From: Octopus vulgaris
Taxonomy: Eukaryota
Direction: 5' to 3'
DNA: 64,000 nucleotides
NCBI GenBank assembly: GCA_951406725.2
Contig: OX597832.1
Coordinates: forward strand, 10,230,001 to 10,294,000
Part shown: one piece after another, positions 16,558-43,570 of the stretch
How the letters are laid out: each line of letters begins with the position of its first letter
How positions within the stretch are numbered: the stretch's first letter is position 1
Notes under the pieces: generated by a model
Told to the model about the DNA's origin: nothing
What the model saw: only the letters and a program-made list of their open reading frames with translations
The model's database searches: none
Program-made: the position numbers and the translations under genes

Positions 16558-18840
16558 AAAGGCACTCACGAAGGTCCATAATTGGAAATCCCCCGGTAAA
16601 GATAAGGTGCCGAATTTCTGGCTCGCATCGCTCCCATGCGCACACGGTAAGCTAGTTCAGCTGCTCAATGGAATTATGAGAGACCCAAAGAAAACACCTG
16701 AATGGTTAGCAAGTGGTATTACTTACCTACTCCCAAAGAATAACGAAACCAACCTTCCAAAAAACTATCGGCCTATAACCTGTCTATCCACCACGTATAA
16801 AATCCTAACATCTATCCTGGCGGAGAAAACATATGCATTCATGGAGAAGAACGATATTTTCCCCATTGAACAAGAAGGGTGCCGCCGAGGCACTTATGGA
16901 TGCAGAGATCAACTGCTAATCAATCGTATGATCCTTGAGAACTGTCACAACAAGCGCAGAAATCTCAGCACCGCATGGATTGACTACAAAAAGTCCTTCG
17001 ACAGTATACCGCATCCATGGATCTTGAGATCGCTGGACATCTTCAAAATTTCCCCTGTGATTTCAAACTTCCTGAAGCACAATATGTCGTTGTGGAATAC
17101 GAATCTCCAATTATACCACTCTAATGGAGTACTTGCCTCAGAAAATATAAACATCAACTGTGGAATTTTTCAAGGTGACTCACTTTCACCTTTAATATTC
17201 TGCATAGACCTAATACCCCTTACAAGTGAATTAAACAGAACAGCGTATGGGTATAAAATTGCCAATAAAAACATAAGCCATCTATTTTATATGGATGACT
17301 TAAAACTTTATGGTAAAGACAATAATGAACTTGAAGGCCTATTGCGCACCGTGAAAGCATTCAGCGATGACATCGGGATGGAGTTTGGACTTCAGAAGTG
17401 TGCCAAGGCCACTTTCCAGAAAGGGAAAGTGAAGACCACAAATTCAGTCGTGTTAGATGTTGACACAGTCATAAGAGAGCTTGAGCAAGAACAAACATAC
17501 AAATATTTAGGGATAAATGAAGGCTCTGGTATTCAGCGTGCAAGCATGAAAGAGAAAATCAGGAAGGAATGTTATAGGAGAGTTCGTGCAGTCCTGAAAT
17601 CTGAACTAAATGCACGTAACAAGGTGTTAGCTATAAATTCCTTAGCAGTTCCAGTTGTTACTTATAGCTACAATGTGTTGAACTGGAATATGAGTGAAGT
17701 AAAGAATATAGATAGGAAAATACGCAAGCTGCTGAGTTGTAATAGGATGCACCACCCAAAGGCAGACGTAGATCGCCTTTACCTTCCCAGAGCCCAAGGA
17801 GGTCGAGGCCTGATCCAATTTGAACTAGCTTACAAAACAACCACAATTGAACTGGCCAAATATCTCGAGATATCGAATGACTGGATGCTAAAGCTCGTGG
17901 AAAATCACGGGAGACGAAAGAAGCTTCATTCTATCATAAAGGAAAGCAACAAATTTGCTATTGATCTCGTGCAGGATACCCCAACGGAACAACCCGAGGG
18001 AAGTACGGCAACTATTGTTGCAAAGAAGGTGAAAATGATGGCAATGAAAAAAGCGCACGAGCAATTGGCTGATAGGTGGGAGGAGAAACCTCTGCACGGC
18101 AAATATGTGACCGCAGCAAACAAGCTGATGTTGACCAGAAGCAAACCCATCAGTGGCTACGGAGCTCAGGGCTAAAAGCAGAGAGCGAAGGTTTCATCCT
18201 GGCTGCTCAAGATCAAAGCCTATTAACCCGGAACTACCAGGCCAATGTGATGAAAAATGGAGCAGACCCAAAATGCCGATTCTGCAACGACATGATTGAA
18301 ACAGTGGACCACCTAATCTCTGGATGTAAAGCCTTAGCACCAGTGGAGTATAAATTAAGACATGACAGAGTTGGCCAATATCTCCACTGGCTAATAAGTC
18401 GGTATTACAATATCAAAACTGCCGACAAGTGGTATAATCACCACCCTGAGGCTGTAACTGAAGGAGAAAATGTAACCATTCAGTGGGACTTTCCAGTACA
18501 TACAGACCGAACCATCAAGGCCAATAAACCAGATATTGTTGTGAAAGACCAAAACAATAAAGTTTGCTTATTGATCGACATGTGCATCCCCTGTGATCAT
18601 AATATCTCAGCGAAAGAGTTTGACAAGCTCAGAAAATATAAAGACCTACTCATTGAAATTGAGAAAATGTGGCATCTCAAGGCGGTTACAATACCAGTGA
18701 TCGTAGGAGCACTAGGAATGATCAAGAAGGGAACCGAAAATTATATGAGAATGATCCCTGGCTTACCATCCCTGCAAGAAGTGCAAAAGATTGTCTTAAC
18801 TGGTACATCACACGTATTGAGAAGAGCATTGTCGATGTGA
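16558..18840 (+). pseudogene. Dong/R4 polyprotein, N-terminally truncated, one frameshift near 18111
   Basis: ORFs 16379-18175 and 18076-18840 join as HGKYVT/RSKQADVD if one C is restored at 18111-18112; the poly-M/I/R N-terminus is only microsatellite read-through. Confidence 0.9.
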
Positions 18841-29323: not shown

Positions 29324-29411
29324 CGGAGTAAACACATAAATGTGAAACAAGGTGGAAAAAAGAGTACATATATATATATATGTATATATACATATATATA
29401 CATATATATAT

Positions 29412-30400
29412 ATTAGATCACTCTATCAAAACCAAGAGGCTACTGTACGGATACCATATGGCGACAGTGATTGGTTTGAGATTGGAAAAGGCACACGGCA
29501 AAGTTGCATCCTGTCACCAGCAGTCTTCAACACGTACGATGAAAAGGTCATGAGGAATGCAGGCCTGGAGGATAGCAGCATTGGAGTGAGGATTGGAGGA
29601 CGAAATATTAATAACCTTCGCTATGCAGATGATTCAAACCTGCTGGCGGAGAATGGTAAGGATCTGGAGGATCTTGTCCTGCTGGTCAAGAAAGAGAGTG
29701 AGAAATTCGGGCTGTACCTCAATGTTAAGAAAACGACAATCATGTCAACAGCAGCCACAACAAACATCAGCATCGAGATCGTTAATGAAGACATCGAAGT
29801 GGTTGATGATTTCATCTTCCTTGGCTCCACAAAAAAAAAGATATGGTGAAAGCACTCCAGAAATAAAACGGCGGATAGTACTAGGCAGAGAGGCAATGGT
29901 CAGCATGAGCAGGGTCTGGAAGAGTAGAGACATCAGACTCGCTACCAAATGCAGATTGGTGAATGCAAGTGTCTTCCCAATAGCAACATATGGATGCGAG
30001 ACCTGGAGACTAAAGAAAACTGACCAGAACAGAATTAATGCATTCGAGCTTTGGTGTTGGAGAAGGCTTTTACGGATTCTATGGACAGTGAGGCTCACAA
30101 TGGAGAAGTTCTTAAGCAGATAAGGCCGAAAATGTCGCTAGGAGCTAGGATCACCAAGCATAGATTGGCATATTTCGGTCATATTATGCGGAGAAAATCC
30201 CTGGAGAAGGACATCATGCTCGGAATGGTCAGTGGCAAGAGAGTAAGATGCCGACCAAGAACCCACTGGTTTGACACCATCAAGAGTGATACCGGAATGG
30301 ACATAACCAATCTGAGAGAAGCGGCCCAGGATAGAAATGACTGGAAGACACTAATCCAACGAATGACCGATAGTCGACTTCGACTGAGCGGATAGAGAGA

Positions 30401-35896: not shown

Positions 35897-36105
35897 TTGT
35901 GTGTCTGTGTTTGTCCCTCAACATCTTTTGACAACCGATGCCGGTGTGTTTACGTCTCCGTAACATAGCGGTTCGACAAAAGAAACCGATAGAATAAGCA
36001 TTAGTCGTACAATTAATAAGTCCTGGGGTCGATTTGCTCGACTAAAGGCGGTGCTCCAGCATGGGAATAGTCAAATGGCTGAAACAAGTAAAAAGTAAAG
36101 AGTAT
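35786..36105 (+). mobile_element. SINE family C, 5'-truncated, abutting the Chapaev3-like relic
   Basis: Collinear with 39040-39295. Confidence 0.85.
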
Positions 36106-38948: not shown

Positions 38949-38950
<2 letters not shown>

Positions 38951-39292
38951 CGCAAGAGTGGCTGTGTGGTAAGTAACTTGCTTACCAACCACATGGTTCC
39001 GGGTTCAGTCCCACTGTAGTGTCTTCTACTATAGCCTCGGGCCGACCAATGCCTTGTGAGTGGATTTGGTAGACGGAAACTGAAAGAAGTCCGTCGTATG
39101 TGTGTATATGTTTGTGTGTCTGTGTTTGTCCTCCCTAGCATTGCTTGACAACCGATGCTGGTGTGTTTACGTCCCCGTCACTTAGCGGTAGAATAAGTAC
39201 TGGGCTTACAAAGAATAAGTCTCGGGGTCGAATTGCTCGACTAAAGGCGGTGCTCCAGCATAGCCGCAGTCAAATGACTCAAACAAGTAAAA

Positions 39293-39787: not shown

Positions 39788-39843
<56 letters not shown>

Positions 39844-39895
39844 CATTTATACATATGTTAATATATATGTTTATAAATATATGAATATATGTATT

Positions 39896-39951
<56 letters not shown>

Positions 39952-40069
39952 AATCAAGGAACGGCCATAATAGGCCATTCACCCACTAGAAATAACAGCC
40001 AAAAGCTTTAACCGCAAAATAACATTAATACCGTAAACCAGGAGAAAATTGAAAAACTTTTACCCTGAA

Positions 40070-40176
40070 ATTTCTTAGACGATGCACCGTTTCATCTACC
40101 GTTTAATGGTAAACTAACCTGATTAAATTAAATCAAGCCAATCCACCATAGGCCCTTAGACTCATCAGTAAGAAAT
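40070..40176 (-). ncRNA. Type I hammerhead ribozyme with extended stem II (copy 1)
   Basis: Reverse complement of the 40698-40804 motif. Confidence 0.85.
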
Positions 40177-40697
40177 AGCCAAATCGGAACAGATATTTTT
40201 CACGAGGCATTCCTCTTGCTACCTCGGCAATATCTGACCTAAAATTTTCAAATCATCGCACTCGCGCCAAATTTATCGGCAGCAAATAAACCACCGATTC
40301 CGTTACGGAACTAACCAGAAAATTCATAATTAATCAATATAGGGTGGCAAAAAAATTTTGTAGAATTCTTTTGCCACCAGCGGCAACTAGTAGGAAAAAA
40401 TTAAATAGTCATAAACCATTTTTACGTTCAACATCACAATCAAGGAACGGCCATAATAGGCCATTCACCCACTAGAAATAACAGCCAAAAGCTTTAACCG
40501 CAAAATAACATTAATACCGTAAACCAGGAGAAAATTGAAAAACTTTTACCCTGAAAGGTTTATCGGCAGCAAATAAACCTCCGCTAATCATACAATCATA
40601 AATTTGGCGCGAGTGCGATGATTTGAAAATTTTAGGTCAGATATTGCCGAGGTAGCAAGAGGAATGCCTCGTGAAAAATATCTGTTCCGATTTGGCT

Positions 40698-40804
40698 ATT
40701 TCTTACTGATGAGTCTAAGGGCCTATGGTGGATTGGCTTGATTTAATTTAATCAGGTTAGTTTACCATTAAACGGTAGATGAAACGGTGCATCGTCTAAG
40801 AAAT
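40698..40804 (+). ncRNA. Type I hammerhead ribozyme with extended stem II (copy 2)
   Basis: atttctta-CTGATGA-gtcta...tagat-GAAAC-ggtgcatc-GTC/taagaaat; 8-bp stem I; predicted cleavage after 40796. Confidence 0.85.
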
Positions 40805-41178
40805 TTCAGGGTAAAAGTTTTTCAATTTTCTCTGGTTTACGGTATTAATGTTATTTTGCGGTTAAAGCTTTTGGCTGTTATTTCTAGTGGGTGAATGGCC
40901 TATTATGGCCGTTCCTTGATTGTGATGTTGAACGTAAAAATGGTTTATGACTATTTTTTTTTCCTACTAGGCCGCTGGTGGCAAAGGAATTCTACAAAAT
41001 TTTTTTGCCACCCTATATTGATTAATTATGAATTTTCTGGTTAGTTCCGTAACGGAATCGGTGGTTTATTTGCTGCCGATAAATTTGGCGCGAGTGCGAT
41101 GATTTGAAAATTTTAGGTCAGATATTGCCGAGGTAACAAGAGGAATGCCTCGTGAAAAATATCTGTTCCGATTTGGCT

Positions 41179-41285
41179 ATTTCTTACTGATGAGTCTAAG
41201 GGCCTATGGTGGATTGGCTTGATTTAATTTAATCAGGTTAGTTTACCATTAAACGGTAGATGAAACGGTGCATCGTCTAAGAAAT
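41179..41285 (+). ncRNA. Type I hammerhead ribozyme with extended stem II (copy 3)
   Basis: Same motif 481 nt downstream of copy 2; predicted cleavage after 41277. Confidence 0.85.
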
Positions 41286-41506
41286 TTCAGGGTAAAAGTT
41301 TTTCAATTTTCTCCTGGTTTACGGTATTAATGTTATTTTGCGGTTAAAGCTTTTGGCTGTTATTTCTAGTGGGTGAATGGCCTATTATGGCCGTTCCTTG
41401 ATTGTGATGTTGAACGTAAAAATGGTTTATGACTATTTAATTTTTTCATACTAGGCCGCTGGTGGCAAAAGAATTCTACAAATTTTTTTTGCCACCCTAT
41501 ATTGAT

Positions 41507-41546
<40 letters not shown>

Positions 41547-41790: not shown

Positions 41791-42829
41791 GCACCTACTA
41801 TATACACATGCTCAAAGAAACACGCGCTTGTATGATTAGCGGAAATACGAATAAATGTTTTTATATATTTATGGACTTGCTTTGCTATATTCCTGATGTG
41901 GCATCGTGTCTTGAAGCAGATGTTATTTTGTGAGGGTAATTTTTTCTTGCCAAGTAAATACACGCACAGTATATATTCGTTCTTCACCCGTTTTTTTTTT
42001 ATTATTCTTGTTTCATCATATATCCAATCTCTGGAAACCTTTTGTCACACATCTCTGACCTCTGCAGTGTCTCTTCCATCCCACTTGTCTCCTGGTCTGT
42101 TCAGTGCATTCTGTCTGTCTATGATGTGTATCTTTATCTGTGCATGCCTTTTGATCTGGATCTGAGAGTGTATGTGAGTGTGTGTGAGTGTGTGCGAGCA
42201 CGTGCCTGCGCGTGTGAATGTGCGTGCGCGCATGTGCATGTGTCTGTAAGTATTTTGTATGTGAGTTTTGTGTGTGTTCATGTGGGATTTTTACAATATT
42301 TATGTCAGTGCCCTTTATATATATTTTTTTCATTTACTTACCTATCGCTATTTTTTTTATTCAGTGAGATGTATGTGTATATGTGTGTCTTTTGTGTGTA
42401 TTTGTGAGTTTATGTAATCTTGTGTATCCGTGTCTCCTTTTTTGTTTTGCTTCTATCTGAAGTCGTCGTCTTGCGCAAGGTAGTTCCGGTGGGTGTTGTT
42501 TTTCATTCGGCTGCATCTGTATGCGTGATTAGGCATATACATTGTTTTATACAGCTCTCAGTATTGTTATGTTATTTGTGTGTGTGTATGTACATAAGTC
42601 TATCTGCATATGTGTATACATGTATTTGTATGGGTGCGGGAATGTTTGTATATATTATGATTGAGATAGTCATGTCAGTGTGTCGGCGCCTTGTATAACA
42701 CCACTACACATTTACGCCTATTAAATTGGACAGCATTGTTGTAGGCAGCAAAACCGTTCGACGTTGCTCTTCCATGGGATGTTACGACCACTATACATAC
42801 CCCTGACGATAGTAATCCTTTTTCTTCTT

Positions 42830-43570
42830 ATTTTCAGTTTTTTCACGTTTTCCGTATCATTGGGCTCCACATATTCACCACTGGAATGTTCATCAGCACT
42901 GTTGGATCTCTGCATTTCTTGATCTGAAGGTTTAGGCACAGGTAATTTTTCTGGGTACTCTTCTGGGCGCATTGCTGATTGTAAATTTGGGCAAACAATA
43001 AGTTTTTTTTTTCTTTGCTGAAGTAGAGCCTGTAAATCATGGTGACAGAAATAGCAATCATTAGAGTGATTTTTCTGCTCACGCCAAATCACTGGCACAC
43101 CAAACTTTATGTGAACATTGTTTCCTGCATACCAGGCACTCAATGTCTTCACACATGTAAGGCAACAGATATCACATGCGGAGCCCATGACTTATCCTGT
43201 TCTCCTAAGTAACAAATGAAGTACACCTTGTATAATTTCTTGATATGGCATGTAATACTGCGCTTTCTTTAGCAAGATGTAACATAATCTGTTTGGACTA
43301 GTTTTGCACTGTCTTGCACTCATCCTTGAAAACAAATAAGATCTGAAAGATAAAAAACATAGTATGAAACACAAGCTTTGAAGTCTAAAGAATTTTGTGA
43401 TAAACTCAATTCACTATAAGCACACAATAATAAACAGGAAAATATAATTTTAAGAAGATCATCTCAAATTCCATTTTACATGTAAATTAGGAATTTTTCA
43501 AACTCATACAAATGACAAATCAGTGAGAAAAATTAAGCTATGCACACAAAAAACTTATTGGGTAACACTC
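42830..43570 (-). mobile_element. Decayed Chapaev3-like transposon, 5' part (Cys-rich N-terminal domain)
   Basis: CKTSPNRLCYI; CCLTCVKTLSAWYAG; FGVPVIWREQKNHSNDCYFC; PNLQSAMRP..LPVPKP. Confidence 0.78.

Follow-up and report, generated by a model that had tools for sequence, protein, structure and literature searches.

A hammerhead retrozyme inserted as two opposed arms in a TA repeat of Octopus vulgaris, probably by a Penelope enzyme with two fixed priming sites and more than one round on a likely circular template

Non-LTR retrozymes of metazoans have been described in coral, mussel and axolotl (Cervera and de la Pena 2020, PMC7229834), where copying of circular RNAs into tandem cDNA by a reverse transcriptase (RT) is proposed and Penelope-like elements (PLEs) are named as candidates. 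Copying of circles has also been proposed elsewhere (PMC4209133). Vertebrate retrozymes are treated as non-autonomous derivatives of PLEs by Li et al. 2026 (bioRxiv 10.64898/2026.07.22.740005), on the evidence of co-occurrence and of pLTR homology in Xenopus; local tandem expansion is discussed there, and its samples include no mollusc. Both the mobilising enzyme of animal retrozymes and the circle as template are left open in PMC7229834 and by Li et al. In EN+ PLEs a tail is found on one end only (Craig et al. 2021), and in vitro the RT begins synthesis at two positions inside the RNA, on both cut target strands, with the tail lying between these positions (Frangieh et al. 2024, PMC11167929). 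In the main text of PMC7229834 none of the words 'inverted', 'target site' and 'cephalopod' appears (0 occurrences each), and our literature search, outside which lay the supplements of that paper (on further invertebrates) and Repbase, returned no description of a cephalopod retrozyme. Nor did it return, with most subscription papers outside it, two-site inverted insertions for any retrozyme or twin priming in PLEs or retrozymes. The retrozyme class is already known; the two-site insertion footprint was not found in print. The two-armed copies likely record repeated copying of a circular RNA by a Penelope enzyme, a route that has been proposed for such elements and of which the search found no demonstration.

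The window (the whole 64,000-nt stretch of Octopus vulgaris DNA that was analysed) carries at 39947-41510 an element flanked on both sides by (TA)n tracts. Self-comparison resolves it into an inverted arm (610 nt) and a forward arm (913 nt) with 41 nt of filler between them. We consider it probable that this is a two-armed insertion of a hammerhead retrozyme into a TA repeat, made by a PLE enzyme from two fixed priming sites, likely on a circle and for more than one round. Its parts are as follows.

39795-39948, no strand: (TA)n tract of the left flank, likely target (TRF)
39947-40556, minus strand: inverted arm of ~1.25 units, outer end at fixed site A (self-comparison)
40070-40176, minus strand: copy 3 of the type I hammerhead, with cleavage predicted between 40078 and 40077
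40557-40597, no strand: junction filler of 41 nt
40598-41510, plus strand: forward arm of ~1.9 units, outer end at fixed site B
40698-40804, plus strand: type I hammerhead copy 1
40698-40705 with 40797-40804, plus strand: stem I of copy 1
40706-40712, 40781-40785 and 40794-40796, plus strand: CUGAUGA, GAAAC and GUC of copy 1
Within copy 1, plus strand: long stem II; near-palindromic stem III of 4 bp
40797-41277, plus strand: predicted 481-nt monomer between the two cleavage sites
40893-40914, plus strand: hairpin just upstream of site A (second copy 41375-41396)
41179-41285, plus strand: copy 2 of the type I hammerhead, with cleavage predicted after 41277
41461-41496, plus strand: hairpin that lies just upstream of site B (~41510); its first copy is 40977-41012
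41510-41539, no strand: (TA)n tract of the right flank, likely target (TRF)

The inner (5′) end of the inverted arm lies ~8-10 nt downstream of the ribozyme cleavage site, and 25 nt of the filler (40559-40583) are a templated copy of element sequence. Site A falls at ~40926, where it is read through, and in its second copy at 41408. A preliminary description had seen three near-identical tandem copies here; the three hammerhead cores stand, but the tandem arrangement does not, since one arm (39947-40556) is inverted and a filler lies between. It rightly took the unit to be without an ORF (the longest stop-free stretch is 49 codons), and the four hairpins that it named are all present in the sequence. 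It had overlooked the inverted two-arm layout and the pair of fixed ends, from which most of the information on mechanism comes. Elsewhere in the window a very high-copy SINE-like repeat lies near the element (38950-39290 and 36008-36093), likewise in TA repeats. The window further holds fragments of LINE-type RTs (Pfam RVT_1, zf-RVT) and a Cys-rich fragment resembling a transposase (16600-18837 and 29346-29846 on the plus strand, 42724-43191 on the minus strand), the Cys-rich fragment giving no Pfam match.

Each full copy was said to hold a complete type I core (CUGAUGA, GAAAC, GUC and an 8-bp stem I), and two predicted plus-strand cleavage sites were placed 481 nt apart; both statements are borne out. 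Complete cores were found three times, with CUGAUGA at 40706 (+), 41187 (+) and 40168 (-), a stem I of 8 bp and a stem II holding a ~55-nt hairpin insert. Cleavage is predicted after 40796 and 41277 on the plus strand and after 40078 on the minus strand. The invariant core of the type I hammerhead (CUGANGA, GAAA, UH) is present, as are the three stems and the open stem I. An Rfam scan at gathering threshold gave no match for the ribozyme, so the call rests on the core motif and on covariation rather than on an Rfam model. RNAalifold recovered the three-way junction from 24 copies of five subfamilies, with both-sided changes in 29/109 pairs against 19.8 ± 1.9 in shuffles (stem I 5/6 pairs, stem II 3/3, stem III 1/4); as the changes were counted on a structure from the same alignment, whose rows are related and represent only five subfamilies, these counts are supportive and carry no probability. 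In the young subfamily N7 and H17 (C or A) have heritable variants and the invariant core sites have none (0/11), a conservation that is not significant (Fisher p 0.15) in a sample chosen partly on the core. In sister subfamilies ~70% identical the ribozyme is conserved with compensatory changes. Together, the covariation and the core-site variants are supportive of a ribozyme under constraint.

The sense monomer is predicted to fold at -144.6 kcal/mol (z -5.13), with 0/100 shuffles as stable, and the antisense monomer at -84.1 kcal/mol (z -1.71). Compared with the circular MFE, the active fold of the monomer is less stable by 3.9 kcal/mol, and its stem III has a pairing probability of 0.01; both values count against the preferred reading of the element. 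In terms of predicted activity, the short, near-palindromic stem III and the raised active fold fit the known type of hammerhead that is active as a dimer and protected as a monomer (PMC4209133). Many other, unrelated type I hammerhead families were seen (L074:669-1240, L056, L057, L037, L088, L159, L160, L343), often with a long stem II insert and some in inverted pairs; these are possibly further retrozyme or pLTR families.

About a thousand copies of this ribozyme-bearing, non-coding element are present in the genome. A search with the unit gave 216 matches in the 40 that were scored of 1053 candidates, and exact patterns returned 422 ribozyme matches, 438 site A junctions and 968 site B junctions, against 0 each for the reversed patterns. 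The family is young and dispersed, and its copies are independently mobile. From the young subfamily we examined 133 loci, which fall into three sets: the window and its 39 best matches; 33 loci picked via the ribozyme pattern on contigs C1-C3; and 60 picked only by the site A junction. Together with 11 from the other sets, these last account for 72 of the 74 A junctions that were listed for C1 and C2. Arrays with at least two near-full units number 77 among these loci. Sister subfamilies, ~70% identical, and a remote older one have tandem units and the same B-type end, and the A-type end is also found in subfamilies B to E. At least six subfamilies, differing in age, retain the structure of the whole unit. 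As in non-LTR retrozymes, tandem units each carry a complete type I hammerhead, the two plus-strand cores of the window being 481 nt apart, and there is neither coding capacity nor any LTR feature, the ends directly adjoining (TA)n. In contigs from four runs of four studies, RNA by guess, the unit was covered and its unique flanks nearly uncovered, a pattern that a ~1000-copy repeat with DNA carry-over would give alike. At some loci (L054:2758-4191, L253, L273) two independent insertions are stacked in one TA tract, sometimes from different subfamilies; the second element of L054 has one arm that apparently lacks part of the ribozyme region.

The array termini are nearly always found at one of two sites. 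Outer ends lie at unit position ~379 (site A) or ~480 (site B), ~105 nt apart, each a dozen bases past a conserved hairpin and directly abutting TA repeats; inner ends are variable. For the 72 A-ended arms, which were chosen by the A junction only, the opposite arm ended at B in 57 cases, at A in 0 and elsewhere in 4, and was absent in 11. A motif count across the 133 loci gave 47 AB, 36 BA, 0 AA and 0 BB end pairs, so that every back-to-back pair found (83/83) combines one A with one B. The same rule holds in an autonomous PLE family of this genome, with a 1312-aa RT/GIY-YIG ORF, whose ends are 56 nt apart and occur one of each in 12/12 two-armed copies in view. A second PLE family also has two ends, 32 nt apart. 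From this we infer paired priming, one site per target strand. At several loci (L031, L033, L037, L046, L254, L259, L268) the last few template bases are reiterated at site B before the TA run, resembling slippage or re-priming by a telomerase-related RT.

Two RT start sites with a one-end tail, an inverted 5′ arm and an AT-rich target are the marks of mobilisation by a PLE, and all are found here. The proposal of a young, PLE-mobilised element of retrozyme type is thus supported, the two-site end rule being common to the autonomous PLEs of the genome, and we regard PLE mobilisation of the family as very probable. Several young autonomous families are present. One (L183:2263-6198, G000:C17, and related loci) is very young, with an intact 1312-aa RT/GIY-YIG frame that has a long Asn-rich insert; it targets TA, and its two ends are located at the ORF start. 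Two more (L079:3-1544, L215-L244; L367:1142-3484) have a C-terminal GIY-YIG, frames of 775+ aa and 781 aa, and many near-identical copies; by eye, the pLTR of the 781-aa family contains CCAAT, CRE-like and TATA motifs.

An insertion could arise in five steps. First, an array would be transcribed. Second, to judge from motif and covariation, tandem hammerheads would release monomers of ~485 nt, probably acting as dimers because stem III is short and near-palindromic. Third, by analogy with known retrozymes, a host ligase would close the monomer, or stem I would hold a nicked circle. Fourth, a PLE RT/GIY-YIG protein would cut both strands of (TA)n, one strand priming at A and the other at B, ~105 nt downstream of A and, like A, just past a conserved hairpin, as in vitro work on PLEs suggests. 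Fifth, each RT would complete a varying number of rounds, and the cDNAs from both would join head to head; the two-arm architecture and the single-haplotype arrays on which this last step is based are observed.

In the 77 multimer arrays, with homopolymer columns and gaps masked, the mean distance is 0.0052 within arrays, 0.0063 between opposite arms and 0.0333 between arrays. Arms agree at heritable sites in 52/60 arrays against 5.8% of mismatched control pairs, the main exception being a locus with two separate insertions. Among 265 units the nearest relative lies in the same array for 102, is tied for 124 and lies in another array for 39. The 77 arrays show 39 haplotype patterns. Where a variant is common to several arrays, every unit that covers it has it in 553 array occurrences, and it is partial in 142. 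A further 170 variants are restricted to one array each: 126 of them occur in just one unit, 28 are intermediate, mostly from one locus with two separate insertions, and 16 are fixed throughout, one of these in the window, where it is present in 3/3 unit copies. Arms reach ~7 units. On a self-cleaved linear monomer an arm begun at A could extend to at most ~131 nt and one begun at B to ~237 nt, yet 51/56 A arms that reach the cleavage window go beyond it, with 24/72 A arms longer than one unit. Repeated copying of a circular or circle-like monomer is the simplest reading of these arrays. At two loci (L249, L075) alternate units (1 and 3) of one arm share variants, which could reflect a dimeric template or an assembly effect.

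The same element with the same paired priming by a PLE could instead have been copied from a linear template, either a mostly uncleaved multimer or linear monomers joined by template jumping, with no covalent circle. Unprocessed RNA serves as the main substrate of an Anolis PLE in vitro, where hammerhead mutants were without effect on insertion (PMC11167929), the core is blocked in the monomer MFE, and homogeneous parent arrays would also yield homogeneous daughters. However, the 39 haplotype patterns together with the 553 fixed and 142 partial occurrences would require repeated monomerisation and re-multimerisation. Moreover, copying through a parental junction would give identical inversion junctions, and none is common to two insertions among the 86 two-armed insertions. 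We therefore think a linear template unlikely, and a circular monomer rather likely.

One expectation of the preferred account is poorly reflected in the data. A pile-up of 5′ ends at the cleavage site, mapped with affine gaps, is weak and uneven and counts against this best explanation: ends near the site numbered 10/64 in the set whose query started at that site, 3/54 (p 0.18), 6/72 A arms (p 0.03) and 1/57 B arms (p 0.78) in sets that overlap slightly. Most 5′ ends lie 6-11 nt downstream of the cleavage site, and stalling of the RT at stem I would yield the same. Both arms end within 15 nt of one template position in 24/86 insertions against 6.3 by permutation, mostly where the insertion is short and the rounds of the two arms are equal; the lengths of the arms are correlated (rho 0.51, 86 insertions). 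Coincident ends after unequal rounds, as predicted for a circle, were not significantly enriched (6/46 vs 3.3, p 0.12).

These coincident ends fit two RTs halting at one RNA end, and they fit fold-back synthesis too. In the latter case, which would alter only the fourth and fifth steps above, there would be one priming site per event, the second arm would be made by snap-back and the other end would be fixed by endonuclease resolution, to which Craig et al. attribute the tail. The coincidence of arm ends and the correlation of lengths would follow from this, although two RTs halting at one RNA break would also explain the coincidence. Either arm can nevertheless exceed the other by kilobases, and for a PLE in vitro both sites act as RT starts on either strand (PMC11167929). 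Fold-back synthesis thus seems improbable to us.

Paired priming on a mobile retrozyme may also be set against local growth: the arrays could be solo pLTR remnants of an undetected PLE, expanded as minisatellites by unequal crossover, a scenario found in bioRxiv 10.64898/2026.07.22.740005. The spacing from the ribozyme to the first end is ~130 nt in the unit and, by reading, in two PLE pLTRs. Using profile and local alignment, we compared the unit with the best candidate partners only (two young PLE families, the GIY-YIG loci of several others and the oldest sister subfamily) and found no similarity to PLE pLTRs in the loci inspected; no partner PLE emerged from this comparison, which counts against the preferred reading. 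The best local alignment scores between unit and PLE were at shuffle level (30/100 and 81/100 shuffles as high), and profile matches in PLE loci were absent or lay outside pLTRs, seemingly in neighbouring unit insertions. A likeness by eye between the first end of one PLE and site A was rejected, its local scores being no better than those of shuffles. The unit was not linked to an ORF at any of 184 loci from subfamilies A-E or of 30 from F. PLE fragments are present in 13/184 and 1/30 of these loci, and in no case was a fragment assigned to the unit as its ORF; six junctions were viewed and the rest judged by coordinates. At five of the six, TA or unrelated sequence lies between the fragment and the unit; the sixth (L318) adjoins an inverted fragment. 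The preliminary description had allowed that, if all copies flanked PLE ORFs, the unit would be an ordinary pLTR; at the loci examined it does not flank an RT/GIY-YIG ORF in the same orientation, and no examined copy is the pLTR of an autonomous PLE. Local expansion also fits poorly with inverted arms that are both multimeric and of one haplotype, and with the 126 single-unit variants that have not spread, while at least six subfamilies of differing age retain the whole-unit structure. This scenario is, in our judgement, very unlikely. Lastly, although homopolymer indels separate the copies and the inverted array of the window was judged from the assembly rather than from raw DNA reads, an assembly artefact at the TA repeat is hardly credible, since the array follows the A/B rule of 83/83 pairs from many contigs, its junction and filler are peculiar to it, and a private variant is present in each of its three copies.

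More tentatively, and at somewhat less than an even chance in our view, the family may be an old, independent viroid-like RNA lineage that has no sequence tie to PLEs and exploits their machinery by structure. A PLE RT dimer would act at two hairpin-marked sites on a ribozyme-made circle, in a double rolling-circle reverse transcription. If so, each genomic insertion would be the fossil of one circular RNA molecule and would offer direct genomic evidence for the retrozyme life cycle, and the tail and 5′ inversion of PLEs would be explained as paired priming, one site per target strand.

In summary, the footprint can be counted: strict one-A-one-B ends as in the host PLEs, and single-haplotype multimers in both arms. 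The one-of-each rule (83/83 here, 12/12 in a PLE) is relevant to the question of how the tails and inversions of PLEs originate, and the anatomy of the insertions renders the open mechanism of retrozymes testable. Moreover, the family comes with a template of 485 nt on which the start sites are defined, and the same genome encodes several young PLE ORFs that are intact, so that rolling-circle target-primed reverse transcription can be tested in vitro.

On every feature that sequence can test, the element belongs to the metazoan non-LTR retrozymes, with circular RNA, a defining feature, lying outside such tests. Like the retrozymes of PMC7229834, it consists of non-coding tandem units with a type I hammerhead each, low GC and a highly self-paired monomer, and autonomous PLEs coexist in the genome. 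The unit is longer (481-495 nt against ~170-400 nt), with a long stem II insert, and unlike those retrozymes it is inserted as two-armed inversions with two fixed ends in (TA)n; circles have been demonstrated for them, whereas for this family they are predicted. With the retrozymes of Li et al. 2026 it has in common a dependence on PLEs and the occurrence of monomers, dimers and multimers; in contrast, pLTR homology was not found here among the PLE loci inspected, and the evidence is the anatomy of the insertions. Among Chlamys PLEs, which mostly lack hammerheads, the non-autonomous ones such as MRC1 (Craig et al. 2021) have a 3′ end similar to that of their autonomous partners, whereas our unit has a conserved hammerhead and no detected similarity to a partner. 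EN+ PLEs (Craig et al. 2021; PMC11167929) likewise show an inverted 5′-truncated arm, a tail on one end, two internal RT starts, AT-rich or (TA)n targets and a hammerhead upstream of the start sites. Unlike them, the retrozyme is without an ORF and has up to ~7 units per arm, and its tail is ~105 nt, compared with 30-40 nt published for EN+ PLEs and with 32 and 56 nt in two PLEs of this genome.
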